Shown here: one piece after another, positions 4,770 through 53,097 of the stretch | Layout: each line of letters opens with the position of its first letter | Numbering within the stretch: position 1 is the first letter of the stretch | UHGV virus genome: UHGV-0210098 | From: a virus | Direction: 5' to 3' (one strand) | Length of the DNA stretch: 64,000 nt | Notes under the pieces: generated by a model | What the model was told of the DNA's origin: nothing | What the model saw: only the letters and a program-made list of their open reading frames with translations | Database searches by the model: none | Translations under genes and position numbers: made by a program

Positions 4770-7700
4770 ATGACGAACCCTATAAATGAAAGTACAAAGT
4801 GGCTTTACGGAAAACTCACAGGATTAGGTTATAATGTGGGCAAGGATGTCAATGAGTTTGACAACCTTATACGCACAAATGCAGAATCGCGCCAATGGGC
4901 GTATGATACGGCAAGGAAGAACGGTCTCAACGTGGGCAAAGATATGGACGAGTTTTCCTCGCTGGTTGGTGGTACAGTTGCCCCTCCTGCCACTGCGCAA
5001 GCGCAACCACAACAGACACCGGCCACAGCCTCAACCGTGAAACCGATAACTGATAATACCGCACAGCAAGCAACCGTACAACCTGCACAGGCACAAGGTC
5101 AGAAACTCACTCCCATGCAGCAAATGGGCTTTCAGATGCAGATTGACGGCATGAACGCTCGCATGAAGCAGCAGAAAGAGCAGTTTGACCAACGCATGGA
5201 GGGCATAAAGAAAGGTAATAAGCCCGGTGCATTCATGGGCGAGCGTGAGTTCAACCCGACAACCGGCAAGATGGAAACCAACTACTACACTACGCAGGGT
5301 GAACGTGTTGGCTCTATGTTTGAACAGAGCCAACGCAACACAGAATACAATCAGTGGTGGGAAAACAACACCGAGGACGGAAAACGGCACAAGGAACAGA
5401 GGCTGCAACGCGAGTTTGACGAGCGTTTGGCCACTCTATGGCAGCGTCATAACCCAACAGAGGGAGAAAACGCAGCAGAACAGGCATGGTCAGCAGCAGA
5501 GGCACGGCAGAAGGAGGCGGCGAACCGCATCGCGAGTGAGATTTACAGAGACCGAGGCGACGTCATGAGTAATGCCGCATTTCTTGGTGGACACGAGAAC
5601 CACATCATGAATGCGGCAATGAACACCCACCGTAAACAAGTGGCTCACTACACCAACTTCGACCTCGACCGTCTGATGAATGACTCGTGGGACAATCTTG
5701 GAGAGGCAGGACAGAAAGCACTTATTGACGACTGTTATAAGATGCTCCGCTACCGCAATCCGGGATTGGATGAACTTGTGTTGTATAATCAAGCCAAACA
5801 GTTTGCTCGTCAGCAGTCAGACCTCAGACTTTATAACCTTGCTGTTGAGAAAAACCTGCCCAAGGGTAATCTTGAGTATCTCATGCGCAAGATTGGCGAC
5901 ATGAATATGATTGCCAATATATCCAAAGGTATTGCAGTATCATCTGCCAACGGAAAGACCGGCGACATGGCCGCATACGAAGCCGCCAACGAACAATACA
6001 GACAGGACGGCCACAAGATACTTGATGTAACCGGCACCGTTGCCGGATTTGCCCTCGACCCCACTACATGGCTGTCGGCAGGTGTCGGCAGTGCCGCAAC
6101 AAAGGGCGCGATGTGGGCAGGTGGCCGTTATCTCGCAGGACGAGGAGCAACAGCAGCAGTTACCAATGCCGCCACTCGTCAATTTGCCACCTCCATGACC
6201 GGGCGCATTGTCGGTGGTGTGGTCGGCGGTGCTGCCAACTTCGGCACATTTGAAGGTGTCAAGGAAATGGAAAACCAATTTGCCCACGGTGGCCATGTCG
6301 TAGGACAGGACGAAACCGGCAAATACATCAACGAGGGATATTCCGCCGGGGCAGTGGCCGGGCAGTTTGGTCATGGTCTGTTGATGGGTGGTGCCATTGG
6401 TTGGCTTGGCCCCGTGTCGGGCAATGTTTCCGACAAACTCGTCAGAGGAACATCAAGCACAGTTGGCAAGGTTGCTACTCGCGCAGGTGTCTATACAGGC
6501 GCAACTATGGCCGAGGGTACAATCTTCTCCGTTCCCGAATGGATAGAGGGCGACCGTGACGGCTTTGACGTGTGGACTGACAACATGGCCATGATGGTAG
6601 GTTTCAAGGCCAAACACATATTAAAGAGTGCCGGTGGTGTTCTCGGCGACCTCAAAGCATCATTTGACAGCCCTGCCAACGGAGCAAAGAACCGCCTCGA
6701 CTTTGAGAGTAGACTGCGTATGCGCATGGATACTCCTTCAGACGGCGGCATGGCACTGACAAAGGACGAGGAGGCCGAACTGAAGCGTTATGGTTACGAC
6801 CTGCGCGACCTTGTGGAGAGTGCCGAGCGCACCGGCGATGCTTCCGAGGGAAACATCATTGCAAAGGACGCCCCCGAAATCGTTAGCCGACTGACAGACA
6901 TGGTAACAGACCCACGTGTCAGTGAGGCAGCGAGAGCCAAGATGTATTACTATGCCACTGGCCGCAAACTTCCGATGTCCACCATTATGAAAGGTGAACT
7001 CTATGAGGACGGAAAGGGAGGATTTATCGTGGAGTCGCAGGGTGCAAATGGCGTGATAACCTCTCGCTCATTCAAGAACCGCAAGGAGGCCGACCTTGAA
7101 TTGCAGCGCATCAACCGTCAGACCGAACTCAACAGCATAGAAATTGGCGAGCGTTATCAGCAGACAACCGACTTCGAAAACCGTTTACAGGAGGCTTGCC
7201 GCACCGTTGCATCTGAAAACGGTTGGGACATGGTGGAGGTTTACCGTACCTGCGAAGAAGCACGGCGGAATTACCTCCGTGGCGGCGACAAGCAATTTGA
7301 CGAGGCACAGCAGAACATCCTCCGCAAGGTAACGGATGCAATGGGCGAATTTGAGGAAACCGGCGCAACCGATGCCATGCGTGGCCGCATCAACGAGAAA
7401 TACGGCGTGGATATTGACGCAGCAATCCGTAAGGAGGCCAACCGCCGCACACAGGCCGAGCAGACTGCCATAGACGAGTATATAGATGAACTTATCCCCG
7501 ACAAAGCAAAAGACCGTCCTGTTGAGGATGCAGATGTTGAGGACATCACCAATCAGAAGAGTTTGCCCGGCGGCGAGGAAACTTTTGATGATGAATTTGG
7601 TAACGAACCTATCGACCCTCGCTTTGACGGTGGAGAGGTTGCGCTCGACTACGACCCTCATCAGCCCGGTGGTGAGCAGAAACCCATTGGCCGTGCCGTC

Positions 7701-10700
7701 ATGAAATACAAAGACCGTCCTGTCGAGGTATTGAGTGGCCGTGTTGTGATGATGGAGGACGGCACCATGATTGACAATGAACGCAGCGATAACTCTATTG
7801 TCATTCGCGACCTCGCCACCGGTGAGATTGAAATGGTTTCACCCGAAGCCATTCTTTCATACGAAGAATATGCAGCCTCTGTTGATGAGGCTGAAACGAC
7901 ATCAGAGCAAGGTAAAGCACCCGAAGCATCTGTCGAGGAGCAATCCAAATACACCTCCGGCCAAATCAAGATACGAAACTCTGATGGCACCGAAACGCGC
8001 GGTGTCCTTACAGGCTATGTAGATGAGGACGGCAAACATGAGTATTATGTTGAGGGCGACCTGCAACATCTTCACTATGCTTCAGAGTTTGAACTCGACA
8101 ACATTCTTTCAGACTATCAGCCGGACGCGCCGCAAGAACCCATCACGCCGAAAGACAGTCAAGGCAACGACCTTTCCGTAGGTGATGAGATAGTTCTGTC
8201 AGCCGGTCGCACAGGCATAGTCAGCGACATACAGCCCAACGGTGCTGTAACAGTAGACCACAACGGCGAGAGTGTGACCTATAATGAACAATTCGGCGAC
8301 ATTACTGCCACTGGGTTGCGCAAGGTTACGCCTACTCCTGTTGCAGAAGAAGTACCGACCACCGTTCCAGAAACCGCAGAAAGTGTTCCCACAACAGCGG
8401 AAACAACCGAAAATCCGTCTGTACCTGTTCCCAATTCTTCTGAAAATGGTAACAATGGCGGTGTAATTATTCCAACTGATGGCAACATTGGTGCGGAGAA
8501 TATTCCTGTCCCTGCGGCAGCACCTCAGAGTGAGGTGGCACAACCACAAGCAGTAGAGCCTACACCATTGCAGCGTATTCCTCGTGATGAAAAGGGAGAA
8601 CCTATCTTTGAACAGGCAGACAGCCCCGAAACCGCGTGGGATGCCCTTGTGGAGTTTAGCGAGGGTGATGCTGCCACGGCCAAAGAAATTGCAGATACTA
8701 TGGCCGAGGAGAAGCGCAAAGCATTTGAAAAGGCACAGAAGCAGAAACCTAAAGGCAAGACCCCGACAGAAATCCTTGCATCGAAGAAAACCAACTCTGC
8801 CGAACTCGCAAAGGCAGAGAGTGAGTATCTCCATTGGCAAAAGATGGCAAATGTAGAACAGAGCCGTCAGAACGCAATCCGCTCACAGCAGGAGGCCGAG
8901 GCTCGCCAACGTGCCGCTGAACGTGCAGAGGCAGAAAAGGCAGAACGTGAGGCACGAGAAGAAGCGGCAAGACTTGAGCGTGAAGCATTGGAGGGTATTC
9001 CCGAGTGGCACATGGACACTCCCGAGAATGCCCGAAAGCGTGGTGCGCGCCGTTATGGCGGTCAGATGTTCACTCGTCAAGAGCCTGTTCAGAATGTGCC
9101 TGGTAAAGAGGTTGAGGTCAAATTCTCACAGAAAGACCTCCCGAAAGGCCGTGTCGCTGTCATTGAGGCTGAGCAGTTGCAGCCCTCACACACACAGGGA
9201 CAGCGCAATCCTATGTTCTTTATAGAGGAGGCACAGCCCAAGAACCGTTCCGAGGCCGTTTCCATGAACGCTGCAAGAGATATGGCCGAGGGCATCCGTC
9301 CGCAGGAAATCACCGGCAGCGCAACAGCGTACACAGGCGCGCCCACTGTGAACACTCGCGGCGAGGTCATTCAAGGCAACAACCGTTCAGATGCACTCCG
9401 TTACCTTTGGCAGAACAATTTGCCGGAGCAACAGCAGACCTACAAGCAATATCTTCTCGACAATGCCGAGCAGTTAGGACTTGACACTGATGCCGTTGGT
9501 GCCATGCAGCACCCTGTCCTTGTCAATATGCTTGATGTGGACGATGCAGATGCCATACGTTTAGGACAAATGACCGCACAGGACACCGAGAGTGGAGGCA
9601 TTGAACGTATCAAGCCCAAGAATGTAGCGCAGAAACTTGGTGAAGGTATGCGCTCCTTTGCCACTCGTCTACTCAGCAGCGGCGATGATGAGGCCACCTT
9701 TGGGCAGCTCGTAGACCGTAACGGAACAGAGGTGTTGAAGTGGATGAACCATGTAGGTGCAATCAGCAACACTCAATTTCAGTCCGCTTTTGACAGCAAG
9801 GGCAGTCTTACGGCAGAAGCCAAGAACGACTTGCAGAAAGTCCTCTATCAAGCCGTATTCAAGGGAGGTTCACAGCAGTTGGAAGAAATGTTTGACCGGC
9901 TCCCGGCCAAAGCACAACGCGCAATCCTCTCCACCGCGTTCCGCGATATGGACTCTCCTTTTGCCGGGAAGATGCTCCCCGAGATACAATCATCTATCAT
10001 TGCCTATAATGAGTTGATGCAAGACCCGGCATTTGAGTCTGCAAAGAACTTGGAGGAAGCATTGAGGACAGTTGAGGCGTTCAAGCGTCAGATTTCTCTT
10101 GATGATAGGTTTGAACAGTATATGCCGGCCGATAATTTCAGTAACTTTGCACTGCAATTGGCGGCAATGTATAAGGCGAGCGATATGTCGCAGACCACTA
10201 TCGCATCCTATTTCAATCAGATGTACGACCTTGCACAAGGCAAAAAGGCCGCTACTCTCTTTGAGGAAGCCGACACAACGGAATATCCTCTTGCCGAGGT
10301 TATCAAACAAGTATTAGGAATAGATTATGAACCTGCAAAGAATGGAAACAACAATGTCACAGATGGAGGTGCTAATGTGGCTCTCCGTAATCAAGTCGGC
10401 CAAGGAGGGGAACTCCGAGGCAATGAACCACCTGCAAACGGAGAACAAACTCCGACAGGAACAGAACCGTCCGAGCGTGGAGCAGGAACTTCAGACAATA
10501 GCATTGAAGGAGGACGAGATACCAATGTCAACGGAGGAACAGTTGATGTTGAAGCAAATGGAGGATTGGCAGATGAAATAACTCCTGCTATCGGTCCATT
10601 TGGGGAAATATATACACAATTCAAAGGAAAATCCCAAGAGGCAATAGCCTATTTGCTTGACAAGAAAAGTGGTGAAGCAGTCGGCGCACTCCACCATAAA

Positions 10701-13700
10701 GAGATTGGAGACATTGACCTCGTTTATGGTAAAGAAGGAACAGGACATAGTGACGGATATGGCCTTGCCAAATTAGCCAAATATCACCCCGAAGTCCTTA
10801 ATAATCTGCAAGACATTCTGAATGACATGGTTGTTACCAAGCGTTCGGAAAATCGTGTACAGTTGGAGAGTGAGAAATACCAAGCCGCTGTTCGCCTTAA
10901 ATGGGATAATAAAAAGAAAACATGGCTTTTAACCATGTTTGAAAAGAAAAACAGTGTCCTCGACAATACGACAGACACTGGCAAGACCCTTGTGGGCAAC
11001 GGGAATGACACTGCTACTCCCGAAAACACTGTTATTTCTGATGGCAAAGATAATACTTCTTTGCCAAACGAGCAAATTTCAGAGGAAGAAATTGCAACGC
11101 AACACGCTGATGTAGAGGAAGAGCAGACACTTCAAGCCTCTATTAAGGCCGCTGCGTCAGAAGTAAACACCGAGCCGACACCTGCACAGGCAGAGGCAGG
11201 GAACTACAAGAAAGGCCATATCACCATTGGCGAGTTTGACATCACTATTGAGAACCCGGCAGGAAGCGTCCGCAAAGGTGTGGATGCTGACGGTAAGGAA
11301 TGGCAGACCACAATGGCCAACACCTACGGCTACATCAAAGGTACAGAGGGAGTAGACGGCGACCACATTGATGTGTTCCTGCACTCCGACATGGACCAAT
11401 GGGACGGACGAAAGGCATTTGTCGTAGACCAAACCAACACAGACGGCTCATTTGATGAGCATAAGGTGATGCTTGGCTTCAACGACAAGGACGAGGCCAT
11501 GAGTGCCTACCTTGCCAACTACGATGCAGATTGGGCGCAGACGCACCCCGGGTTGCGTATCTCAGAAACCAACATCGAGGACTTCAACAAGTGGGTAGAG
11601 AGCAGCCACCGAAAGACCAAACCATTTGCGGACTACTCCACCGTCAGCAAAGTTAGTGACGATGCTCCTGCCACAAAATCCGCTCCTGTTGTAGAGGGTA
11701 ATGGTTACAAGGTAGATCCTAAGCCATACACCAACAAGCAGGGAAAGACCCTCGACACCTACCTCGTTACTTTTGACCGCGATTTTTCTAAAGAGGAATT
11801 GTCGGCTATACGTTCAAAGGCAAAGGCATTAAAAGGTTGGTATGACCGTGAAACTCGCGGTTGGATGCTTCGCAGTAGCGATGATGCCAAAGCATTTGCC
11901 GAGGATATTATTGGTAAGAGCGATGACGAGGTGGCAGATGAGGCTCCGCTGTCTATGGCCGACATGGAGCGACCCACCGAAGCACCTGTTAAAAAGGTCG
12001 ATGTCCCCGGTGTGTTTGATGCACTCAAAACAAAAGGAGAAGCCAAACTGAGCGACCATGCGAAGACTGTAGAGCAGCCGAAACCGAAAAAGCGTAAATG
12101 GATTAGCGATGAGGATGCCGCCGAATTTGACAGCCTCCGCGACAATCTGCGAAACCATTTCGGAAAGTCGGGCGACATGGTGCAAGAAGATGCAGTAGGT
12201 TACGGCCAGCCTCAACCCAAGCAGATGGACGCAGAAGTCCTGCGCATGGGTACACGCATGACATATTTAATGATGAAAGGCGGTCTGCGCTCATTCTCAG
12301 ACTACTGCGAGGCAATGAAAGATGAGTTGCCCGACATCTTCGATGATATGCGTCCTCACCTCAAATCACTGTATGCCGCCGCACAGAACATGGAGGAGGT
12401 TATGCAGCTCGGTTGGGACGAGGAAATGGACGACCGCAAAACCGTCAAGGCGTTTGATGTTTACAACTTTGATAAACCAGAAGCAAAAGACATCATCGCC
12501 ACCGCACAGCATACAGTTGATGAACAGGCATCACAACAACAGACCGAACAAATAATCCAAACACTCAAAGACAAACGTAATGAGCAAAGAAAAAAAGAGG
12601 CTGACGACACATCAGCAGATACAGAAATTATTGTCGACAAAGCAGAGACTACTGCAAGTGAAGTCGAAAGTAAACTCGAAGCTGCAACAACTGAGCAAGA
12701 TGCCGAAAGACTCTCTCACAGCATCGACAAAGAACTCGATGAAGTAAACAAACAACTTGCCCTCCTCGGTTATTATGAAGCCGAGGAAGTAGACAAGGAC
12801 TTCAACGAGGCATACGGCTATATGCGTAATGCGGAGCGTAAGGCCACGCAGGATGCTCATAACCTCGCTACTCAGTTGGCTACAGACCTCGGGCTGACCA
12901 TTGACCCGAAAGACAGGGTTCGCAAGTCAAAGTATAACTTTGGCAGCAAGATTGCCCATAGTAATGTTGCTCCTGCAGGTGGTGAGGTCTATATAAAACT
13001 GCCGCTTGCAGAGGGGCGTGAATTGTCAATGACACTTAGCCTTGACAAAAATGAGCCGTGGCTTGAACGTGGCCGTGCAGAAAGACCCGACGACTTGGTG
13101 CTTACTCGTATCATGTTCCGCGTTGAAGATAAGACAGGCAAGAGTACACGCTACGTTACAAGTAACGACTTCATCAGCCCGACATCTACATACGATGAGT
13201 TGCTTGCACATATACGCAGGTCTGTTCGCCACCTATTGCCGGAGGAAACCGTACAACCGGCCACGCCTCTCACGCCTCAACCGGGCGAAGATATGGTACA
13301 GATGGCGGAGCGTGTGTCAAAAGACAGAAAAGCGAAGAAGCCTCAAGTCAAGCCGGAGCAACCTATCGGCGATTTGTTCGGCGGTCTATTCGACAACATA
13401 GATGCCGAAGCAGATAAACCTCAATCAGTAACCACAAAAACAAAAGAAAATGAGAAATCTAACGTACAACCTCGCACCAAAGAAGAAGGGCGAGGGGGAC
13501 AGCAACCGCGACCTAATGAACCGTTGGGAGAGAGCGCAAAACATGAAGATGAGCGAACTGACGGAGGAAGAATGGCTGAACGTGGTGGAGAGCATACTGT
13601 GTCTGACACCGAGCGAAGCGGAAGCGTATCTCAACCACATCAGAGCGAGCGAGGCGTAACAGAACCTAAGAACACTCGCAACAATCATACTGAACGTGGC

Positions 13701-16700
13701 GTTGATTATGCCCCCAAAGGTGAAAAGGCTCGTATTGATGCCAACCTCGCAGCCATAGAACTTGCCAAGAAACTACTCGCATCCGGCGCAACGGCCACAC
13801 CTAAAGAAATGGAGGTGCTTCGCCGTTATAGCGGTTGGGGTGGACTTGGTGCGGCTTTCAATGAGGGACAAGCGTGGGCACCCAATCCTATCAACAAACG
13901 CCTCCGCGAATTGCTGACACCCGAAGAATACGAGGCCGCTGTTATGAGCCGCAATAGTGCCTATTACACTCCTGCACCTGTCATTGATGCCATGTGGGAT
14001 ATTGCAAAGGCTCTCGGCTTCAAGGGGGGAAACATCATGGAGGGTTCAGCCGGTATCGGCAATATCATCGGCCTTATGCCCTCGGACATCAGCAAGCGCA
14101 GCGACATTCACGCAGTGGAGATTGACGACACCACCGGCGGCATACTCTCATTGCTCTACCCGGATGCAAATGTTGAGATACATGGTTTTGAAAAGACACG
14201 CATCGGAAATGGTACGGTAGACCTTGCCATTACCAATGTGCCATTTGTAACCGGCCTCCATGTTATGGACGAGAGTGGCGACAGCGACCTTTCCAAGAAG
14301 TTCCGCGACATACACGACTTTTGCATCGCAAAGAATGTGCGCAAACTCCGTGAGGGAGGCATCGGTATCTTCATCACATCAAGCGGCACCCTTGACAAGT
14401 CGCAGAAACTACGCAACTGGCTCGTGGGCGACAAGGAAGGCTGCGCAGATGTTGTCGGAGCATTCCGCATGAACAATCAGACATTCGGAGGTACGGCCGC
14501 AACATCAGACATTATTGTCATTCGCAAGCGTGTGAACGGACGCAAGAGTCCCAATGCCATAGATGTAAGCACCGTTTCCGTAGCGAGAACTGCATCTTTT
14601 GAAGATGATAAGGGCAAGACCAAAGACCTGCCTATGCTCATCAACCGCTACTTTATTGAGCATCCCGAAAACATGGGAGGTGAAATGTTCTTTGGTTTTG
14701 AGCAGGGCGACACCTATCGTCCTACATCTATTGGACTGTTCCCCACTCGCACGGCTGACCAAGCAGGAAGAATGGCTGCATGGGTTCAGCGTATGGCCGA
14801 TATGGATTGGAAAACGGAGGCCGTCAGCAAGCCTACCGAACAGACCTCACACATCAACGAGACACTCGGTGAGGGTGTCAAAGAGGGAAGCATGGTAACA
14901 GACAGCGATGGAAACCTGTGTGTCGCCCGGATGGGTCGTGCTGTTCCTCTCACTATCAACAAGAACAAAATCAAGGGGCGCACCAAAGAGGAGTGTTTCA
15001 AAGACTATTCAGAAATCAAGGATGCACTCGCAGAAGTTCTGAAATATCAGACCGAGCACGAGGACGATGCAGGATTGCAGCCACTACTTGACCGACTGAA
15101 TAAAGCCTACGACACTTTTGTGGAGCGATATGGCAATCTCAACAAGAACAACAATCTCGCATGGCTGCGCAATGATGTGGATTTCTCAAGCATCGTAGCA
15201 CTTGAAACCTATTCAGAAAAAGGCAGTAAGGACGGCCAAAAGATTAAAACATACGGCAAGACAGACATCTTCAGTCGTCGTGTCGTTGAGAAAGAGAGCG
15301 AGCCCGCTCCGAAGAATGTAAAGGATGGCATCATTGCAAGTATCTACAAGTTTGGACGCATCGACCCGAAATATCTTGCCACTCAGCTGGGAAAGAGTGA
15401 TGCCGAAGTTAAGCAGGAAATCATCGACAGTGGTTTAGGTTTTGAGAACCCGACCACCGGACAGATGGAGGTGTCGTATGAGTACCTTAGTGGTAACGTG
15501 CGTGAGAAATTACGTCAAGCAAGAGAAGCCAATGAAGCCGCAGGAGGTGGATATGAAGCCAACATCAAGGCATTGGAGGCTGTTGTGCCAATGAACATCC
15601 CTGCACACCTTATAGAGTTTACTCTTGGTTCATCATGGGTAGAACCTAAACTCTACGAGCGATATATCAAGGAACGCACAGGACTTGATGTTAAACTTAC
15701 TAATGCCGGTGGTACATGGAATATGAACGAGCCATACTACACCGATGAACCCAAGAACAAAGAAATGGGAGTGCGTAGTGAAAAACTTGACATCTTCATT
15801 CCCGGTCACAAACTCATAGAAGCGGCCATCACCAACAAAACCATTACTGTAAACAGGACAGTGAAGGACACTGACGGCACTCATACCGAAACTGACCCTG
15901 CGGCCACTACTGCGTGCGCAACAAAAGTAGACGAGATACGCCAAGACTTCAAGGATTGGGCGCGTGAGCAGATGCAATCAGACCCGGACCTTTCTATGCG
16001 TATGGAAGAGGTCTACAATGAGCAGTTTAACAACTCCGTTCCAAAGTCTATCCCGGACGAGTTTGTCCCCGAGCATTTCGGAGGCGCGGCCACAATTGTA
16101 GGAGGCAAACCTTTCCAACTGCGGCCTCATCAAGCAAAGGCCGTTATCCGTGCCACTACACAGCCTGTATTATTGGCTCATGAGGTCGGCACCGGCAAGA
16201 CCTACACCCTTATCACCACGGCAATGGAAATGCGCCGCCTCGGTACTGCACGAAAGCCCATGATTGTGGTACAGAATGCTACGGTCGGCCAATTCGTAGC
16301 AAGTGCAAAGGCACTATATCCCAACGCCAAAGTATTGACCCTTGAAGACGCAGACCGTAACGCCGAGGGTCGTAGGGCTTTCTATGCCAAAATCAAGTTC
16401 AATGATTGGGACATGATTGTTGTTCCTCAATCTGTATTTGAGCGCATCCCCGACAGCATCGAGCGTCAGACCCAGTTTATCCAAGATGTCATTGACGAAA
16501 AACTGATGGTGCTTGAACAGATGCAGGAGGCTGACCCGAGTGGAAAGAGCCAGATAGTCAGGGCTGCGAAACAGGAGATTGAGCGCAAGCGTAATGAACT
16601 TTCACAACTTGCCAATGGTGGCACCACCGACAAGAAGAAAGAAAAGGATGCCAAGAAAGCCGCCGTCACCCGACAGAACGCGGAGGTAAAGGCAAGAGAA

Positions 16701-19700
16701 ATGCTTGACCGTGCCACTGACGATGTGGAGGACTTCGACAGCATGGGCATTGATGCCGTCCTTGTCGATGAGGCTCACGAATACAAGCACCTCGGATTTG
16801 CCACTGCCATGCAGCGTGGCGTGAAAGGTGTAGACCCCTCATATAGCAAAAAGTCGCAGGGAGTATTCCTCAAAGTTCAGTCCGTGCTTGAAAAGACAGG
16901 CGGCAAGAATGTAGTATTTGCAACCGGAACACCTATCAGCAATACCGCCGCAGAGATATGGACTTTCATGCGATACCTCATGCCGGCAGATGTGATGAAG
17001 GACTATGGCATCTACTACTTTGATGATTTTGTCCGCAACTTCGGCAATCTGCAACAGATGATGGAGTTCAAGACCAACGGCAAGTTTGGCGAGGTAAACC
17101 GCTTTGCCGGTTATGTGAACTTGCCCGAGCTTGTGCGTATATGGTCTACAGTTGCTGATACCGTTCTTACACGAGAGGCCGGTGGCGTAAGCGACAAGAT
17201 ACCGCAGATGGAGGGTGGCAAGGCAACCGACCTTTTCATGCCACAAACTCGCGCATTACGTTCCGTCATGAAGTATGTAAAGGAGCAACTTGACGAATAC
17301 GAGAAAATGAGCGGCAAGGAGAAGAAAGAGAACAGCCATATTCCCCTTACTATGTATGGTATAGCCAAGGCCGCAGCCGTTGATGCCAGGCTTGTTCAAC
17401 GAGACGCGGAAGACGATGCAAACAGCAAATGCAATGAGGCTGTACGTCAGACACTCCGAACACTTGAAGAAACAAAAGACTACAAGGGAACGGTGGCCAT
17501 ATTTGCCGACAACTATCAGCGGAAGAACCATGAGACCGACAAGGTAGAGTTCAACCTGTTTGAGGACATCAGAAAGAAACTCATAGATGCCGGTGTTCCG
17601 TCTGAACAGATTGTCGTGATGAAATCCGGCATGACCGTAAACAAGAAACTCGACATCTTCAGCCGTGTAAACTCCGGCGAGGTTCGCGTTGTCATGGGCA
17701 GCACGTTTACCCTCGGCACAGGCGTGAACATACAGGAGCGTCTGCACACTCTTATCCACCTCGATGCACCTAATCGCCCAATGGACTATACACAGCGTAA
17801 TGGACGCATCCTGCGACAGGGAAACCTGCACAATGAATGGGGAATGCCTGTGCGTGTACTCCGTTTCGGTGTTGAGGACAGCCTTGATGTTACTGCATAT
17901 CAGCGTCTGAAAACTAAAGGTGCTATTGCATACAGCATCATGAACGGCAAGCAACTCATGGATAATTCTATGGAGAACCGCTCACTTGAGGAGGAGCAAG
18001 ACCTGTTCGGCGACATCACCGCGCAGCTCTCCGGCTCTGAATATGCCCTGTTGAAAAATCAGATTGAGAAAGAGGTTCGCAAACTGACTGCCCAACTGAA
18101 GAATTGGGAGGCAGACCAAACCTATATCCACAACCGTAAGCGCCAGATAGCAGGACAGAACCGGGAAGCGGAACAGCGCATTGCAGCCAACAAAACCTAT
18201 CTTGAAAAAGTTGAGGCCGCTACCATTGGTGACATCACGGTAGGAAAACTCTCGTTCCCGTCAATAGATGCAATGGAGGACTTCTTCACCGAGCAGAACA
18301 AGAAGAAAGCCGAGTTACAGGAGAAAGTGCGTAAAGACGGTTACTCCTCACGTCCTGCTACGAGCGATATATTTATTTCCGTTGGAGGCTTCGACTTCCA
18401 TGTGCATACAGAAATCAGCAGAGAAACTAAGAGCCAACAGGGCAGTTTGTTCTATACAGCACCGGCCAAAATGACATACTCATGTCCCGAACTCGGCATA
18501 GAAGCCATGCCTGTTAAGGAGAACAAGGTGAAGAATGCTGTAACAGAAATCATGAACGATGTTGTCAGCGGTGAAGATTTCCGTGGCCGCATTGAAGCAG
18601 CCGAGCGTTACATAGAGCGCAACAATGCAGAGTTGCAATCCATTTCTGCACGTGACGGTGTTCCTTTCAAGGACGCGGAGGCACTTGCCAAAGCAGAGGA
18701 AAAACTTGCCGAATACGAGGAACTGATGAAGCAGGAAATGGAGGCCAAAGAAGCTAAGTATGCAGAAATGGATAAAGATGTAGAGGCCGCATCCAACATT
18801 GAACTAACAGAGGAAGATAGTGATGATGTTGCAAGCGAGCCTGTTGCTCGATATTCAGCAGAAAACAGTAACTTTGCAAGCAGATATGAAACCAAAGACG
18901 GAAAAACAATCGGCTACACTTCCGAAAACCCCAAAGCCTACGGAGTATCAGAAGCCAAAGACGGAACTGCCAATAGCGGGACCCGAGAAGCAGACATACA
19001 ACGGCAAGGAGATAATCTACTCGCCGGACGCAATAGTAGACTGAACACCGAAGCCGGAGAGTTCAGCCTTGTAGAGCGTGTATTTACAAAAAACGGTTCG
19101 TTCAATTTTACAAGCGGTGAGAAGATTGAAAGCGCGGACGATGTTGCCTTTATCTTCTCTGCCCTTGAAGATGCAGCCAAAGAACACGCATTTGTCGTCT
19201 ATGTAAAGGACGGACGGCCTACGGTCGTAGAACTTGGAATGGGAACATTCACTGCAACAATGGTGGATATTCCTACCGCATCATTGGCCTACAACCGCAT
19301 CCGTCCCGACCAAGTCTATTTCGTACATAACCATCCGAGTGGCAATCTGAAATGTTCCTTGCAGGATGTTCAGATGCTGCAAAAGATAGAGGGAATGTGC
19401 GATGTCCCTGTTTCGGGTGTTATTATCAATCTCAAGACAGGCAAGTACGGAACATTTGACACTTCAAACAATACAGGTGTCGGAAACAAGCGTACTCCCG
19501 AAAACGAAAGCCGTCTGACAGTCCACACTTTGGATAAACAGATATTTGCGCCGGACTACGACCCAATGGCACAGTCTTTGGTACGGATGCCGAGTGATGT
19601 TGCGCAGTTCCTAAACTCCCACCGTATGGGCGACCGTGCAAAGGTTTCATTCCTCATACTCACTCGTGCTGGCCGCATTGTCGGTAACATTCACACTCCT

Positions 19701-22700
19701 TTCACTGAAATTTCCTCCAATCCTAAAGAGGTTGCACGTTATATCAGTGAGCGTGTTATCCAATTTGGTGGTGAGTCAGCAATCCTGTATGGCGACTTCC
19801 CGATGTCAAGTAGCGATGGAAAAGACTACAAGCGGCTGAAAGACTTGTTGGCGCAAGTAGGCGGAAACACTCTGCTCGATGTTATGCGTGTGGAGGGCAA
19901 CCATACGAGAAGTGCCAATGATGAAGGACTACTCTATGAACCAGGCAGCGAATATGGAGCATCACAGAACGGTGATATTCGTTTCCGTGAAGTTGAGGAT
20001 GATGCCATATTGACAGAGTTCGCAGAGGGCAAGACCGTAAAGGCATATCGCACCATGCAGGTGATTGACGGCAAACTCTACTCGCCTATGGCTACAAAGG
20101 TGGGCGGCAAGTCTACGCCGGAAATCAAACTCGGAGTGCCGGAACAGAGCGAGGAACACCCGGAAATCATCAAAGGCACAAAGGTAGGTCGTGACGGTAT
20201 CGAACAAGGTTATGTTGTAATTGACAAAGGACTTGGCAAGGGTACTCTTACTGTGGCCTACAATCCGTATGCCCATACCTCGCGTACTGTGCTCAACGAC
20301 CAATTCTCATCTGCCTATATCCGTCCGAACCTTGTCACCGTAGAGGTGGAGGTGCCGGAGAGCGAACTGACAAGCGGATACCGCGCACCGATGGCCAAAG
20401 ACGCTGTAGGTGAAATCTCATGGCATAGCGGTAGTGTAAGCGGACAGTTGGCCGAACTCGGTCAGCCTCGCCGCGTTATCCTCACCCGGTACGACAGACC
20501 TGTACGCATCGTTCCATTCCGTGAGGTTGCCGAAATGATTGCAGCGCAACTTGACGGAACAGACATTGCCATACCTTACAATGTTGTGCAGCCGCAGTTG
20601 CGCTCCGAATTGGAACGCCTCGGGATTGCCGTCAGTGAAGAAGCCACCGGCACCGTTGCCGATGCTTCCGATTTTGGCAAAGCCGAATATGTTACAGACC
20701 AAGAGATAGAGCGCATCAATGCTCATCAGCAGGAAATGGCTCAGACTTCCAATGATGCCAAGACAGGCCATGCAGAAAGGCTTTCAAAGAAGTTTGGCAC
20801 TCCTGTACGCATTGTTACAGATGCCAATGAACTGACTAACGCAAATGCGGAGCAACAAGCGCGTATGCGTAAGAGCAAGGGCTTCTATGACCCTGCCACA
20901 GGTGAGGTTGTTGTCGTGCTGCCCAACAATGCAAATGTGGAAGATGTGGCAGAGACCGTATTCCATGAAGTCGTAGCCCACAAGGGACTGCGTGAAATGA
21001 TAGGCGATGAAAACTACGATACCTTCTGCGATGAGGTGTACGACCACCTTAAAGACGACTTGAAAAAACAGGTAGACGAAGAAAGTACACGCCGCTTCAT
21101 GGGAGAACCGGGAAAGGACTATCAGCATCACCGCCGTGTGGCTATTGATGAAATGTTCGGTCGCATGTCAGAGAAAGGTTTTGAGGACTTCACCAAGGCA
21201 GAGCGCGGAATTTGGGCGAAACTCAAAGCAAAGGTATTAGAGGCCATCAACAAGTTCCTCGGCTCGCTGAAACTACCGAAATGGGTAAAACTCGGTGATA
21301 ATGAGTTGCGCTATATTCTGTGGCGCAGCCATGAGAAACTGCGCTCAAAAGGCGACTATGTGGACATGGCTCGTGATGCAGCAAAACGCAACGAGTTAGG
21401 CCTGTCAAACGATGTCCGTTTCCGTGATAGTGAGACCGGCGATATTTGGAATGACAGAAGTGTTGGCTTGGAAGAACGTATCACCAACGCAGCCATAAGA
21501 TTGAGCAACAATCAAAGTGGCGACCTCACACTGCGCAATGATGCAATGAAAGCAATTGGTGGAAACCTTACCTCTCTCCGTAGAGCAATGGCCATTCAGA
21601 AGCAGTTCGACCAATCCACCGTTAAACGAGTGGCAGACCTTGCCCGAATACTGATGCAGAATGGCTATCTCTCCGGCATGAGTTCCGGGGAAATGCAGCG
21701 ATTGATTTCTGCTGTAAAAAATTCCGTCGGCCATGCTGCTGTAAAGGAAAGCACTCAGAAGATTATGGACATCATGGTTGATAATCAACTGCGTAATGGT
21801 GAGGCCACACTTCGCAAACTCCTTACTATTCGTGGAAGCAAGGTCGATGCAAGAGGTGTCGAAGTGCAGGGCGCACTCGATGTAGACGGACAGCGCACTA
21901 TGGAGGTTGTCAAGAAAGCCATGTCACTCAAGGAGGACGACATTAACGACCGAATAGCAGATGCACTAAACCGTATGAGCGACCCCGACCAAACTATTGC
22001 AGACAAAGCCGCAATAGAATATACCGGCCTCAACATGGCTCTCGACTATGTTCAAAACATTGCCGACAGTAAGGCCGAGGAGAAAGCATTGCGTGACGGA
22101 CTGAAAACTGTCAAAGAAGATAAGGATGCCGGACGCATGACTGAAGATGCCTACAAACAGTTTGTAGATGCTACGGAGAATGCAATCCGCAAGAATAAGA
22201 TTGAAAGAGCTGAGGCTTACTTCAACCTTGTTGGCCGTCTGTCAGACTCCCTGCGAGGAAGCATTGAGAATGCAAAAGCATTCCGCGAGGCAGAAAAAGC
22301 ACGTATCAACGAGATACACCACAATGCCAACTCCGACATGGAGGGCAGACCGACCAACGAGCACCATAAGGACAATTGGAAAGACAAGTTTGTCAACAAT
22401 GGTTTCATTCAGTCACTGTTCGCTCCTCTCGGCACCTTTGACCAGATACTCCGCGTGTTCGGCAACAAGAGTGCGGGCGGCGAGGGCTACCTGTGGAACC
22501 GCTTCATGCGCGGTTGGGTAGATTGCCGCAACAAGGAGTTACTCGGTGTCAAAGAGAAATTCGCACGTCTGGACGAGAAGGCCGCTGAATTGTTCGGTAA
22601 GGGCAAGATATGGGGCAATCTCATCAGAATGGAAGCGAAGATGCCGAAGGCTACCGTTTCATTCTGGGACGGTGGAGAAATGCGCGACCATGAACTGACA

Positions 22701-25184: not shown

Positions 25185-27164
25185 ATGGCTATTAAATTGA
25201 ATAGACTAAGTAAGGTAAAACCTGCGAGCATTGAGGAAATGGACAGTGTTGCATACGCACGGTCACAATGTGATGATATGCGCAGAGCAACAGAAGTCCT
25301 GCTCCAAGCACAGACACTATACCAAAATATGTACCGTTTTCGCCGTGAGCGAGAGCGGAACAAGCGTTATAACTACGGCGACCAATGGAGCGACATTGTG
25401 TGCGTGAACGGTAAGAAAATGACCGAGGAGCAGTACATTATGAAGCAAGGAAACATTCCGCTGAAGAATAACCTCATTCGCCGGCTTGTGCGCAATGTTA
25501 TCGGCGTATACAGGAGTCAGGCAACCGAGCCGACCTGTTACGCTCGTGACCGTGATGAGCAAAAGTTGGCCGAAACCATGTCTACTGTTCTTCAGTACAA
25601 TATGCAGTTGAACCGCATGACGGAACTCTATGCACGAACAATGGAGGAGTTTCTGATTTCCGGCATGATAGTTCATCGCAAATGGTTTGGCCGCTTGAAC
25701 GATAAGGAAGATTGTTGGACGGAGTATGTGCAACCCAACAATTTCTTTATCGACAATAATATGCGCGACTTCCGTACATGGGATTGCTCGTGTGTGGGAG
25801 AAATTCATGATGTCAGCTTTGAGGATGTATGCCATGAGTTTGCCAAATCTCCGAGCGACTACGCAAAATTAGCGGAAATATATCGTAACGCGCGAGAAAG
25901 AACGGTATTCACACAAGCATGGGAACAGTTTGGATATACCCAATCCCCCGAGATGGATTTCCTTGTTCCTCGTGACGAAAGCCGATGCAGGGTTATTGAG
26001 GTATGGAGAAAGGAAACGAAGCCCCGGTATTGGTGCCACGACTACAACAATGGTGATGTTTTCAAGATTGAACTTGAAGATTATCAAGAAATGGTTGTAG
26101 AAGAAAATGCAAACCGTCTTATGCAGGGACTGGCCGCAGGTATGGAAAAGAGCGATATTCCTCTCATTCGTGCAGAGTGGTTCATGGACTCATTTTGGTA
26201 TTACTACTACCTCACTCCGTTTGGCGACATTCTGAGCGAGGGAGAAACCCCATACGAACATAAGAGCCACCCTTACGTGTTCAAGGCATACCCATTCATT
26301 GATGGCGAAATTCATTCATTCGTCAGTGATGTAATTGACCAACAGCGTTACACCAACCGCCTCATCACACTATACGATTGGATAATGCGAGCCTCTGCCA
26401 AAGGTGTGCTGATGATACCAAGCGACTGTATTCCCAAAGGAATGTCGCCGGAGGACTTTGCCGATATGTGGAGCAGACATGACGGTGTTATTGTCTACAC
26501 CCCATCCAAGAACCACCGAGACCTGCCCCAACAGGTACAGGCAAACTCTACCAATATAGGCATCAACGAGTTACTGAACCTGCAACTGAAATTCTTTGAG
26601 GATATATCCGGCGTGAACGGTGCGCTTCAAGGAAAGCCCGGTTATGCTGGTATGTCGGCAGCACTCTACAATCAGCAGACGCAGAACGCCACCACCTCAT
26701 TGCTTGACTTGCTCGACACTTTCAGCGAGTTTGTGCGTGATGCTGCCTACAAGGATGTGAAGAACATTCAGCAGTTCTACGATAGTAAGAGAGTGTTCAA
26801 CATTGCCGGTCGTGCCGGAGCGCAGGTTGAGTATGATCCACGCAAAATTCGTGATGTTGAGTTTGACCTGTCTATTGTTCCGAGTACGGCAACACCGGCA
26901 TACAGAGCAATGGCAAATGATTTCCTAATGCAGTTGTGGCAACAGCAAGCCATATCGTTGGAGCAACTTCTACAGGCCGGAAACTTCCCGTTTGCGGACG
27001 AGTTGTTGCAGTCTATCCAATCGCAGAAAGAACAGTTGGAGGCCGGGCAGGTGCCGGAGGGCGTATCACCGCAACTCATGGCACAGGCACAGCAAGGCGC
27101 AAACATGGATGCCGTCAACCAACTTCAAGGAGCAATGAAAGGCCAACAGCCGCAGGTTGCATAG
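25185..27164 (+). CDS. Putative portal protein (659 aa)
   Basis: The size and the position between the giant internal-protein gene and the terminase/scaffold/capsid genes fit a portal. The C-terminus is Q-rich. Assignment is positional; no diagnostic motif could be verified. Confidence 0.45.
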   Translation: MAIKLNRLSKVKPASIEEMDSVAYARSQCDDMRRATEVLLQAQTLYQNMYRFRRERERNKRYNYGDQWSDIVCVNGKKMTEEQYIMKQGNIPLKNNLIRRLVRNVIGVYRSQATEPTCYARDRDEQKLAETMSTVLQYNMQLNRMTELYARTMEEFLISGMIVHRKWFGRLNDKEDCWTEYVQPNNFFIDNNMRDFRTWDCSCVGEIHDVSFEDVCHEFAKSPSDYAKLAEIYRNARERTVFTQAWEQFGYTQSPEMDFLVPRDESRCRVIEVWRKETKPRYWCHDYNNGDVFKIELEDYQEMVVEENANRLMQGLAAGMEKSDIPLIRAEWFMDSFWYYYYLTPFGDILSEGETPYEHKSHPYVFKAYPFIDGEIHSFVSDVIDQQRYTNRLITLYDWIMRASAKGVLMIPSDCIPKGMSPEDFADMWSRHDGVIVYTPSKNHRDLPQQVQANSTNIGINELLNLQLKFFEDISGVNGALQGKPGYAGMSAALYNQQTQNATTSLLDLLDTFSEFVRDAAYKDVKNIQQFYDSKRVFNIAGRAGAQVEYDPRKIRDVEFDLSIVPSTATPAYRAMANDFLMQLWQQQAISLEQLLQAGNFPFADELLQSIQSQKEQLEAGQVPEGVSPQLMAQAQQGANMDAVNQLQGAMKGQQPQVA

Positions 27165-27188: not shown

Positions 27189-27650
27189 ATGAAAGATAAC
27201 AAAACAAAGAAAACGATTTGCATCGACTTTGATGGTGTGCTCCATGATTACTCAAACGGTTTTCAAGGTAAAGATGTATTCGGCGACATGATACCGAATG
27301 CTGACGATGGCACACAGGTACTACACGAAAAAGGGTGGAAGATTATTATCTACACTACACGCCCTAAGACGGCTGCTCTCGAAAAATGGCTTAAAGACCA
27401 CAAGATTGCATACGACTACATTAACGAGAACCCCGACCAACCCGATGACTCAAAGGGTGGAAAGCTCATTGCCGACATCTATCTTGATGATAGAGGTATG
27501 ACATTCCGAGGCCGTTGGGATAAATGGCTTATTGGAGATATTGCTGCTTTCAAACCAAGTGGCAGTCCTGGTGTAAAGGACGAAATGGAGAAAGAATATA
27601 ATGTCGCCAAGAAAAGCATCATCGAACTTGCAAAGTGCGCTAAATGCTAA
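27189..27650 (+). CDS. HAD-superfamily phosphatase, 5'(3')-deoxyribonucleotidase-like (153 aa)
   Basis: HAD motif I in ICIDFDGVLHDY (DxDGV) and a C-terminal IADIYLDDR acidic motif. Phage nucleotidases of this type are common. Confidence 0.5.
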   Translation: MKDNKTKKTICIDFDGVLHDYSNGFQGKDVFGDMIPNADDGTQVLHEKGWKIIIYTTRPKTAALEKWLKDHKIAYDYINENPDQPDDSKGGKLIADIYLDDRGMTFRGRWDKWLIGDIAAFKPSGSPGVKDEMEKEYNVAKKSIIELAKCAKC

Positions 27651-29815
27651 AACGAAGCCGCCGACACTACTTTTGGGACATATTTGAGATTGCTACTGCC
27701 GCGAGTTACGACTTGCGGCAGTTCCATTTCACGGAAACAGATATGCAGACCAATGGCTCGTGTCATTAACAAGTCGTCATGTTTTCCTGTGATAGCACCG
27801 TATGCACCGTTTTGTTTCCTCTCATAGCATAAATACTCGTCAAGACATCGTCCGTCACGTTCGATATAACTTCCCTCACGGATAACTTTAACGAGGGTAG
27901 AGATAACCATTGGCTTTGTGCTGACATTAGTATGAAAGCCATAGTTGAGAGGCAACCCTTCGAGAATTGCTTCTTCGGATTGTTTTCTTGCATAGAGATT
28001 GGGATATACGTCCTTAATCTGATTTAATATGTAATGCGATTGGTCTCCGTCTACTTGACGTTCCCTATCGTGTGTCTCAAGAGTATTGCTCTCAATAACG
28101 AGTTTAGAGCAATCATAGAATGCTGCTATTTGAGCAGCTTTCCATGCCAACAAGTCCATATCAATGTGACCATACCATTGAGCCACGACAGACGGTTTTC
28201 CTCCGTCCATCATCAGCAGACGGTCGAATACGACAATTACGGACCAGTCCGCTTTATTTGAGCGTCCTCCGACATCGACAACCGTAAGGTAGCGGTTTAT
28301 TACTTCTTCAGTATCGTTAGGGTTTACCTGGTCGGGCAAGTTCCATACCCATAGCATACCTTGTGAGTCTGCCTTAAAGCGCAGGTCTCGTAATGCATCC
28401 TCTCCCTCGTCACCGTAAGCATATACATCACCTATGTAACGTGGAGTCCTACATGTGTTCCGCAACTTGTGTACATTATATTTATCGAACACACGTGCTC
28501 CCGAATTAACAAACGCCTCCACATCGTCAGACGGGAACTCTGCGGCAATTAACCCATGCTCTGTGTACTTCTTTCGTTCATTGATGTACCAATGAATAGC
28601 CTCTAATGTGGCACCAATTTGCCACAAATACCAAAGGTACTTTCCACTTTCCTCTCTATTAGATGTTACATTCTCGTTGTTCCTGTTGTTATATAAATTA
28701 GCTGCAAACTCTTCTACATTATCTATCGGCAAAGAATACTGTTCGATGTCGAACCATGAAACGAACATCGCCTCAAATTGCGATTTCTCCTCCTTTGCAT
28801 CATCGTATTCCTTTTGGAAGAAGTTACCTGTACCATTGGCCGTACTCTCATACACAATCATCGTATATGGTTTGTACAAAACTCCTGAACAAGCAGAGCG
28901 TACAATGTCCTCCGGCTTCTTTCCGTCAGTGACTTTCCATAGTCCAACCTCAGAAAGGTGTACGAGATTATAGTCTCCACCACGACAACTATCCGGGCGT
29001 TCAGCAGTACCAATTTTAATTTTGCAATTTCGTTGAGGTACACGATGAATGCTTCCCGATTTACCAACGCCAACTAATTTTGGCTCGTTCTCATTATATG
29101 TTTCTCCTATCTCATGGAGCATTTCGACAGGGTAAGCCTTAATCATACGGTCGAACATATCCTTTATCTCGTCCGAACCAGAGCCTTGATGTGCAATAAT
29201 AAGGGAGTTTAAGCCTACTTTGTGCATCAACTGCAACCACGCCATATAGATTTGTGACGTGGTAGAACCACCCCATTGACGTGCTTTTAACAAGATAAGA
29301 CGTATAGGCTTACCAGCCTTTCTCAACCGTTCTAATCTTTCCACAAACCTACGTTGTGGTCTTGTCAGTCGGAATAATACATCTTCTCCACCTCCCTTAT
29401 TCTTAATGAAAACGTATAAAGCAGCCCAAAATGCAAAGTCATATTTACAGCGTAATCGGACAAACTGCTTAATAACCTTATGCCTGTCAGCATCCCACTC
29501 ATCTTCATGTTCAAAATAATACTCCTCTGCACTGAACGATTCATCTTCTCCATATTCTTCCTGTTTAATTTGGAACAGAAATTTATCAATAGAGCCAAGT
29601 TCAATTATCGCTCGTACAAGTGGTATTTGAAGCATCTCCACAGGAAGATACTGAACAGAAATCGAAAAATCTCCTATGACTACACGCTTCCTTTCTCCAA
29701 TAGAACCTTCGCCGGTTATTGGATTAAATTTTGCATAGACTTCTGCATTTCGCCTATTATTTTCAGTTAAAATATCAGAGATTGCGATTTCCTTTGCCGT
29801 AGTCATACCACCCAT
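27647..29815 (-). CDS. terL: Terminase large subunit
   Basis: 722 aa. ATPase region LKARQWGGSTTSQIY (Walker A variant), LVHLSEVG (Walker B-like) and YESTANG. C-terminal RNaseH-like nuclease TVVDVGGRSNKADWSVIVVFD. Confidence 0.8.
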   Translation of the reverse strand: MGGMTTAKEIAISDILTENNRRNAEVYAKFNPITGEGSIGERKRVVIGDFSISVQYLPVEMLQIPLVRAIIELGSIDKFLFQIKQEEYGEDESFSAEEYYFEHEDEWDADRHKVIKQFVRLRCKYDFAFWAALYVFIKNKGGGEDVLFRLTRPQRRFVERLERLRKAGKPIRLILLKARQWGGSTTSQIYMAWLQLMHKVGLNSLIIAHQGSGSDEIKDMFDRMIKAYPVEMLHEIGETYNENEPKLVGVGKSGSIHRVPQRNCKIKIGTAERPDSCRGGDYNLVHLSEVGLWKVTDGKKPEDIVRSACSGVLYKPYTMIVYESTANGTGNFFQKEYDDAKEEKSQFEAMFVSWFDIEQYSLPIDNVEEFAANLYNNRNNENVTSNREESGKYLWYLWQIGATLEAIHWYINERKKYTEHGLIAAEFPSDDVEAFVNSGARVFDKYNVHKLRNTCRTPRYIGDVYAYGDEGEDALRDLRFKADSQGMLWVWNLPDQVNPNDTEEVINRYLTVVDVGGRSNKADWSVIVVFDRLLMMDGGKPSVVAQWYGHIDMDLLAWKAAQIAAFYDCSKLVIESNTLETHDRERQVDGDQSHYILNQIKDVYPNLYARKQSEEAILEGLPLNYGFHTNVSTKPMVISTLVKVIREGSYIERDGRCLDEYLCYERKQNGAYGAITGKHDDLLMTRAIGLHICFREMELPQVVTRGSSNLKYVPKVVSAASF

Positions 29816-33576: not shown

Positions 33577-34212
33577 ATGGTATATAACATTCACGATGTA
33601 ATGCGCGATGTCCGCGTATGCCTCGACCAAAACATGACGAGCGAACAGTTGTTGCAGACTGACGATATAGACACACTTGCCCTTGATGATATAATCAGAA
33701 GCAAGATTTTGGAAGCAGTTGTCAGAGTGCATACCAACGCTCCGACATATCTGTTGGAGCAGGGTCACAACTTCGGCGATGCCGTGTATTGGGGTGACCT
33801 TGAAAGCGGTTGGGTGTTGTTGCCGCAGGACTTCATGCGCCTAATCGTTTTTGAAATGAGCGATTGGGAGCGAGCTGTTTTCACGGCCATAAGCACCACC
33901 GACCCGGAATATGAGTTGCAGCGTCAGCGCATCAAAGCATTGCGCGGCACCGCACAGAAGCCGGTATGTGTAATCTCAGTGCGGCCAGAGGGAAGAGCGT
34001 TAGAGTTCTACTCATGCAAGAGTGAGAGCGCATACGTTCGCCGTGCGCAATATCTTCCTTACCCGAAGATAGATAAGGACGAGGGCATAGACATCTGTGA
34101 ACGCTGTTATACAGGCGTGGTGTATGCCGCAGCGTCATTAGTATTACTCACATTGGGCGAGGCCGAGAAGTCATCGGCACTCTCCGAAATATCTAAAACA
34201 GCATTACAATGA
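33577..34212 (+). CDS. Hypothetical structural protein (211 aa)
   Basis: ORF in the structural block whose stop overlaps the tail-fibre gene start by 4 nt (atga at 34209), consistent with translational coupling. Confidence 0.45.
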   Translation: MVYNIHDVMRDVRVCLDQNMTSEQLLQTDDIDTLALDDIIRSKILEAVVRVHTNAPTYLLEQGHNFGDAVYWGDLESGWVLLPQDFMRLIVFEMSDWERAVFTAISTTDPEYELQRQRIKALRGTAQKPVCVISVRPEGRALEFYSCKSESAYVRRAQYLPYPKIDKDEGIDICERCYTGVVYAAASLVLLTLGEAEKSSALSEISKTALQ

Positions 34213-52767: not shown

Positions 52768-53097
52768 TCATTTCGTCAGATACTTCCACCAAGAATAATG
52801 TTTGCGATAGTCGAGGTAAGTTGTGCGATACTGATTGGAGTACGCCTCACGCTCAAAGCTGATGTTTCTATATGCCATGTGGCTGTCAAGATACTGTATG
52901 AGCCGGACGATCCATTCAACGAAATACCACACATAGAAAAACACATAGGCCATTTCACGCATCTGTGCGGTATGGATGCACTCATGCCTCATGTCGGAGG
53001 CCGTCATTACGCTATGTTTGCGGACGAACAGCACTCCGAAAAGGTTTATCGCCTTGAAACCCTCAAAGGGGATGATGTTGTTATAGATTATCTTCAT
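52768..53097 (-). CDS. Hypothetical protein (109 aa) with an HExxH motif (HECIH)
   Basis: DMRHECIHTAQMRE, a minimal zincin-type motif. It is aromatic-rich. Tentative. Confidence 0.35.
   Translation of the reverse strand: MKIIYNNIIPFEGFKAINLFGVLFVRKHSVMTASDMRHECIHTAQMREMAYVFFYVWYFVEWIVRLIQYLDSHMAYRNISFEREAYSNQYRTTYLDYRKHYSWWKYLTK

Follow-up and report, generated by a model that had tools for sequence, protein, structure and literature searches.

The segment at positions 11199-11632 of the virus genome UHGV-0210098 was analyzed computationally, and the full 64,000-nucleotide stretch of DNA in which it lies is referred to here as the window. With high confidence for the reading as a whole, the segment is assigned as a minimal pyrophosphatase-fold module of the InPase family that is carried within a giant polyvalent protein of a Bacteroides temperate phage and is most likely an active hydrolase. 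A Pfam-A search of the segment gave a single match, PF18823 ("InPase - Inorganic Pyrophosphatase"), with an E-value of 9e-55 and a score of 184.7 bits against the curated cut-off of 26.8 bits. This match takes in the whole model, from profile position 2 to 135 of 135. A preliminary description of this DNA, made from the sequence alone, had proposed a family I pyrophosphatase-like module embedded in a polyvalent protein. That proposal is upheld by the PF18823 match and by structure searches that returned family I pyrophosphatases only above noise.

The segment corresponds to residues 2144-2287 of a 6784-residue open reading frame (ORF) and lies in frame, as read from the ORF list and the translation. 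No long overlapping ORF is listed for the opposite strand at 11199-11632. The location of the module is given by the following features.

4770-25124, plus strand: polyvalent-protein ORF of 6784 residues (ORF list, translation, Pfam and PHROG domains)
11184-11600, plus strand: PF18823 InPase domain, ORF residues 2139-2277

The motifs NTYGYI and VDGDHIDVFL, quoted in the preliminary description, are both read in the translation of 11199-11632. Among 5.8 billion clustered proteins, 230 relatives were detected, all with PF18823, and conservation was counted in a family-profile alignment of the 120 listed among these relatives (121 sequences, 44-91% identity). The stretch conserved across the InPase relatives extends from P2136 to about Y2289, which is window 11175-11638, and the segment boundaries drawn earlier are therefore good to about 25 nucleotides.

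The fold of the segment was examined by structure prediction and structure comparison. A confident AlphaFold2 model, with a pLDDT of 87.6 and a pTM of 0.82, was obtained from a 56-sequence alignment. The top 50 Foldseek matches in the Protein Data Bank (PDB) are all family I pyrophosphatases, with a best E-value of 2.6e-4 and a probability of about 1.0; the TM-scores to these enzymes are low, at 0.33-0.46. Family I pyrophosphatases are the only structures returned above noise, at about 15% sequence identity. The profile and structure comparison had been set beforehand as the refuting test, and no unrelated fold appeared with an equal or better score. The barrel-plus-helices fold of the segment is that of the classical pyrophosphatases (E. 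coli Ppa, M. tuberculosis Rv3628, PF00719), which are its only significant structural neighbor.

Classical pyrophosphatases were detected by phmmer in the PDB sequences at E-values of 0.09-0.95. These values are too weak alone, and the family profile, hhalign, and fold searches were therefore needed. With the family profile in hmmsearch, pyrophosphatases account for 21 of the 24 matches to PDB sequences at E < 1, each of them individually marginal with an E-value of at least 0.015. The InPase family (56 sequences) was then aligned by hhalign with 12 classical pyrophosphatases, comprising E. coli ppa from NC_000913.3 and loci from viral contigs. This alignment has a probability of 91% and an E-value of 1e-6 over 107 columns; with the single E. 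coli sequence, only 26 columns are aligned. No match to the classical model PF00719 is listed for the segment at E-values up to 10, and the score of 12.8 bits for the NCBIfam pyrophosphatase equivalog NF002578 fails the 246-bit cut-off. The relationship to the classical pyrophosphatases is distant yet specific. The segment belongs to PF18823 and lies outside the family of the housekeeping pyrophosphatase, to which it is distantly related in structure.

The tetrapeptide V-D-G-D, when taken alone, would also suit the catalytic loop of a double-psi-beta-barrel RNA-polymerase-type enzyme in place of a pyrophosphatase. The entire 135-position InPase model is assigned by Pfam, the D-x-D-G-D motif is absent from the ORF (the local sequence is E-G-V-D-G-D), and no double-psi-beta-barrel fold is found among the matches, which are pyrophosphatases only. 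This alternative was rejected, as it had been in the preliminary description, and is given next to no credence.

In the classical enzymes, conserved residues bind the metals M1 and M2, D67 activates the nucleophilic water, and K29 and Y55 hold the attacked phosphate. In the E. coli and yeast pyrophosphatases, R43, E31, Y51, and D97 are the ligands for the leaving phosphate and for the metals carried in by the substrate. The counterparts of these residues in the segment were located in the hhalign alignment and are listed below with E. coli numbering first and family counts in parentheses. All coordinates are for the plus strand.

within 11250-11273, strands 1-2: E20 aligned with E2161 (E in 116/116)
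within 11250-11273, strands 1-2: K29 aligned with R2168 (R in 116/116)
within 11250-11273: E31 aligned with G2170 (Gly in 107/115)
hhalign gap: A38-R43, including D42 and R43, deleted
hhalign gap: Y51-P52 deleted
within 11325-11372: Y55 aligned with Y2186 (Y in 118/119)
within 11325-11372: D65 aligned with D2196 (D in 121/121)
within 11325-11372: D67 aligned with D2198 (D in 120/121)
within 11325-11372: D70 aligned with D2201 (D in 121/121)
within 11427-11465: D97 aligned with N2223, variable (Asn in 74/105)
within 11427-11465: D102 aligned with E2230 by hhalign, or with neighboring D2229 in the phmmer register (E in 117/117, D in 116/117)
within 11427-11465: K104 aligned with K2232 (K in 117/117)

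NTYGYI is paired by hhalign with C53-N-Y55-G-Y-I, and D-G-D-H-I-D is paired with D65-G-D67-P-V-D70. The sequence D2196-G-D2198-H-I-D2201 is the metal-binding and general-base motif and is also aligned with the M. tuberculosis pyrophosphatase by hmmsearch. Nucleotides 11427-11465 on the plus strand encode D2220-Q2221 followed by F-D2229-E2230-H-K2232, and it is at the D102 position that the phmmer alignment to the H. pylori pyrophosphatase is offset from hhalign by one residue. For Y141 and K142, hhalign (global, low MAC threshold), phmmer, and the order of secondary structures provide three differing mappings onto the C-terminal helices.

The classical 14-residue active-site set is incomplete in the segment. 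Counterparts are present for E20, K29 (as Arg), Y55, D65, D67, D70, D102, and K104. E31 (Gly), R43 and Y51 (both deleted), and D97 (variable Asn) are without a conserved counterpart. Acidic residues for two metal ions are present as E2161, D2196, D2198, D2201, D2229, and E2230 and are invariant or nearly so in the family. The preliminary description had stated that the R43/Y55-containing segment is missing, which is half correct: the R43 hairpin is deleted, but Y55 is kept as Y2186 in the NYGY strand. E20 and Y55 lie 35 residues apart in E. coli and their counterparts 25 residues apart in the segment, and hmmsearch places a 10-residue gap in the segment opposite R30-P39 of the M. tuberculosis pyrophosphatase.

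The classical signature, PROSITE PS00387, is D-[SGDN]-D-[PE]-[LIVMF]-D-[LIVMGAC]. It is not matched by D-G-D-H-I-D-V, in which the Asp triad is intact but His replaces the expected [PE] residue. Of the 121 family sequences, 98 share this His, whereas Pro is present in the classical D-G-D-P-x-D. The segment also differs from the classical enzymes by an additional motif, which precedes strand 1 in the model and is absent from the classical active-site residues.

11199-11219, plus strand: G-N-Y-K-K-G-H motif, G2144-H2150

The conservation of this motif is 106/107 for N2145, 107/107 for Y2146, 96/107 for K2147, 96/108 for K2148, and 100/109 for H2150. A second family-specific residue with no classical counterpart is Q2221, which is Gln in 121/121 sequences. 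The motif is presumed to have a role in the active site.

Previously, the domain was described by Iyer, Burroughs, Anand, de Souza, and Aravind in a section entitled "The InPase domain" (2017, J Bacteriol 199:e00245-17; PMC5512222). A type I pyrophosphatase domain without the hairpin was reported there in phage polyvalent proteins and in portal fusions, whereas all of the structurally characterized type I pyrophosphatases have a beta-hairpin insert between the first two core strands. Two functions were proposed, namely the processing of an infection-induced nucleotide-like substrate or the removal of inhibitory inorganic pyrophosphate (PPi). The window copy shares with this InPase the full-length profile match, the missing hairpin between strands 1 and 2, the conserved acidic metal ligands, and the setting in a phage polyvalent protein near head and portal genes with ddrB-ParB and PBECR domains. 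Nothing essential differs; the window copy is found in a Bacteroides temperate phage and its polypeptide also contains a RadC-JAB domain. The domain, the missing hairpin, the polyvalent-protein home, and the candidate functions were thus already in the literature by 2017, and Pfam incorporates them. The window copy is a textbook member, and the functional options listed in the preliminary description are essentially those of 2017.

The preliminary description had also called a fusion of this kind unusual. This view is contradicted by the 2017 report and by the distribution of the domain. InPase is detected by tblastn in 470 of 50,697 deposited phage genomes, mostly as portal or "minor head" fusions of Pseudomonas Pbunavirus, and it forms an internal segment of large proteins in 11 PHROG families, phrog_10089 among them. 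The domain also occurs outside any structural protein, in stand-alone copies of 150-280 residues. One of these, a 262-residue InPase gene, is located in a 335-kb phage-like contig (ERZ25021430; locus L031, 8001-11526) and adjoins genes for ART-PolyVal (ADP-ribosyltransferase) and a weakly matched NTP_transf_2 nucleotidyltransferase. Polyvalent-type modules are separate genes in this jumbo-phage-like genome. In an 819-kb contig (GCA_015473165.1, BNJT01002911.1; locus L030, 6059-16459), a series of many short ORFs on a single strand encodes ddrB-ParB, LPD13, InPase, MuF_C, and fragments of a helicase. The series looks like a polyvalent-protein gene that is interrupted by stop codons, arising either from assembly errors or from a reassigned stop codon.

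The C-terminal domain of the Pbunavirus portal or "minor head" protein (Pa193 gp19, PDB 9B41; BcepF1 gp124) is a homologous InPase with about 40% identity. Residues 635-763 of 9B41 chain L are matched by phmmer at an E-value of 1e-24 and by the family profile at 5.5e-48. The Pbunavirus InPase is fused to the C-terminus of the portal protein, whereas the window InPase is internal to the polyvalent protein and the portal gene is separate. Pa193 is a therapeutic Pseudomonas phage, and pyrophosphatase is unmentioned in the portal structure paper (9B41). The entry was rejected as an experimental InPase structure since, according to that paper, residues 529-765 are without cryo-EM density.

Because the conserved residues are those that handle the metals, the water, and the attacked phosphate, the InPase domain most probably catalyzes the metal-dependent hydrolysis of a phosphoanhydride (P-O-P) bond. 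In the proposed mechanism, E2161, D2229/E2230, and the three aspartates of D-G-D-H-I-D would coordinate two divalent metal ions and prime the water for attack, as their counterparts do in the classical pyrophosphatases. R2168, Y2186, and K2232 would grip the attacked phosphate. The portion of the classical site for the leaving phosphate and the two substrate-borne metals (the D42/R43 hairpin, E31, Y51, and D97) is deleted or unconserved, and the invariant family-specific set of N2145, Y2146, K2147, K2148, H2150, and Q2221 would stand in place of the lost residues.

An improbable alternative is that the domain is a non-catalytic module, repurposed for metal binding or structure, such as packing or anchoring in the capsid interior or near the portal. 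It would agree with the repeated fusion to portal and minor head proteins, with the loss of several classical active-site residues, and with the invisibility of the InPase in the Pa193 portal reconstruction, where it must be flexible or cleaved. However, the catalytic-type E, R, Y, three D, D-E, and K residues are strictly invariant in 121 sequences, which is an enzyme-like pattern, and the stand-alone copies lie outside structural proteins.

For the active hydrolase, the substrate may be a pyrophosphate-containing nucleotide-type small molecule that is made or used early in infection, an assignment that is offered tentatively. We lean towards such a substrate over bulk PPi because the leaving-group residues have been lost or replaced and because a small number of injected copies would hardly raise the pyrophosphatase capacity of the host. 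Bacteria have a pyrophosphatase of their own that is abundant, fast, and essential.

It is also possible, though the less probable choice, that the domain is a genuine inorganic pyrophosphatase that clears PPi near the entering genome and thereby relieves product inhibition of early transcription or replication. The half of the site that activates the nucleophile and binds the electrophilic phosphate is fully conserved, as this function would demand, and the name inorganic pyrophosphatase is used in Pfam and in one JGI annotation. The removal of PPi is one of the two options of the 2017 report (PMC5512222). Against it are the deleted R43 hairpin, the unconserved E31, Y51, and D97, and the score of 12.8 bits versus the 246-bit cut-off of the NCBIfam equivalog. 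A few injected copies should, moreover, count little beside an abundant host enzyme.

A more specific version of the nucleotide-type substrate is regarded as speculative and rather unlikely. In this version a virion-delivered InPase would have retained the two-metal core that activates water, and its leaving-group pocket would have been remodeled to split the pyrophosphate linkage in a nucleotide of the host's immune or stress response. Candidate targets would be the ADP-ribose-derived Thoeris signals, (p)ppGpp or (p)ppApp, and dinucleoside polyphosphates. If true, the InPase proteins would constitute an uncharacterized class of virion-delivered enzymes that destroy defense signals.

For the preferred reading, an active hydrolase acting on a nucleotide-type substrate early in infection, the polyvalent protein would travel in the phage head and enter the cell together with the DNA. 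Packaging and delivery with the virion are probable by analogy because the gene is positioned beside the portal gene and the InPase is fused to a DarB-like antirestriction core. The portal and minor head fusions in Pbunaviruses provide supporting context as a virion association elsewhere. Several points weigh against this reading. The loss of R43, E31, and D97 might weaken hydrolysis instead of retargeting it, and the portal fusions put InPase in the capsid, which is not necessarily in the host cell. Packaging of the polyvalent protein is something that we infer, and no MuF domain was detected in the 6784-residue ORF by the Pfam scans. Literature searches on InPase, PF18823, and pyrophosphatase with portal found no biochemical study of any member, and the sole PDB entry with an InPase domain is 9B41, in which the domain lies within the residues without density.

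The assignment carries little weight as a discovery. Its practical value lies in the residue map of a widespread family, in which the nucleophile and metal core is intact and the leaving-group side is remodeled; the map is a concrete basis for picking substrates and mutants. InPase is carried by the 470 deposited phages, by prevalent gut Bacteroides temperate phages, and by therapeutic Pseudomonas Pbunaviruses.

Classical pyrophosphatases are free oligomeric enzymes, whereas the window InPase is embedded in a 6784-residue protein. The other modules of this carrier are as follows.

9153-9530, plus strand: ddrB-like ParB domain, residues 1462-1587 (PF18763, E = 4e-23)
10686-10955, plus strand: PBECR1 nuclease-like domain at residues 1973-2062, next to InPase on its upstream side (PF18809, E = 8e-7, 29.9 bits, cut-off 27.6)
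12225-19022, plus strand: DarB-like methyltransferase and SNF2 helicase region, residues 2486-4751 (phrog_10089 "DarB-like antirestriction", 1310 and 655 bits)
19131-19403, plus strand: RadC-like JAB domain, residues 4788-4878 (PF04002, E = 3.6e-7, 30.6 bits, cut-off 22.1)

Residues 2486-4751 contain SNF2, Helicase_C, and weak Eco57I matches, with an NVPF motif at residue 3156. The ORF is a polyvalent protein by its combination of ddrB-ParB, PBECR1, InPase, an Eco57I-like methyltransferase, SNF2, and RadC-JAB with adjacent portal, terminase, and capsid genes. The likeness to the packaged antirestriction proteins of the phage P1 DarB type (phrog_10089) lies in the methyltransferase-helicase core of the carrier protein and not in InPase. 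By homology with these proteins, the window ORF is presumed to be packaged and to act in antirestriction. The phrog_10089 profile has an InPase segment of its own at positions 883-1038, upstream of the methyltransferase-helicase core, and the order of InPase followed by a DarB-like core is, judging from this profile, recurrent in other phages.

RadC is listed in the 2017 report for polyvalent proteins of conjugative elements only, and InPase, ddrB-ParB, and PBECR1 are listed there for those of phages only (PMC5512222). RadC-JAB is united in the window ORF with InPase, ddrB-ParB, and PBECR1 in one polypeptide. Farther downstream, at 20964-20981 (residues 5399-5404), an H-E-V-V-A-H motif appears in the context VAETVFHEVVAHKGLREM. 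No significant Pfam match was obtained for this motif, and the only match nearby is a weak one to LPD22 with an E-value of 0.85. The site could be a candidate metallopeptidase that would cut the polyvalent protein into units.

The window is an essentially complete Bacteroides temperate phage. The genes that place the polyvalent ORF in this genome are as follows.

118-1605: integrase
25185-27164, plus strand: portal protein gene, directly downstream of the polyvalent ORF (phrog_156, E = 3.5e-100; PF16510 P22_portal, E = 1.8e-45)
27647-29815, minus strand: large terminase

After the large terminase come genes for a capsid-like protein, a holin, and an amidase. The portal protein is 68% identical to those of the Bacteroides phages BS-TP4 and BKO1-TP3, both of them isolates from a gut-phage study of 2025 (PMC12694917). 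The counterpart of the window ORF in BS-TP4 is gp3 (locus L001, 1511-17686; 5391 residues), deposited as "hypothetical protein". Between the two proteins, identity is 72-75% in the InPase core and drops to 18% in the flanks. The InPase is, on this comparison, a discrete conserved module between variable linkers. The window ORF and BS-TP4 gp3 share only the blocks at residues 948-1909, 2120-2408, 2486-2610, and 5280-5547, and no alignment to RadC or to most of the DarB-like methyltransferase-helicase region was found in gp3. The modules are shuffled between close phage relatives.

A second giant ORF of 2778 residues is located at 34209-42545 and is without a significant Pfam domain. According to PMC12694917, diversity-generating retroelements act on unannotated proteins of about 2000 residues in the related phages. 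A reverse transcriptase did not appear in the window ORFs that were scanned; template and variable repeats were not searched. Two further genes are present besides the corresponding modules within the polyvalent protein.

53081-53794, minus strand: separate small N6/N4 DNA methylase, besides the methyltransferase inside the polyvalent protein
57541-58962, minus strand: separate 473-residue SNF2-family helicase, besides the helicase inside the polyvalent protein

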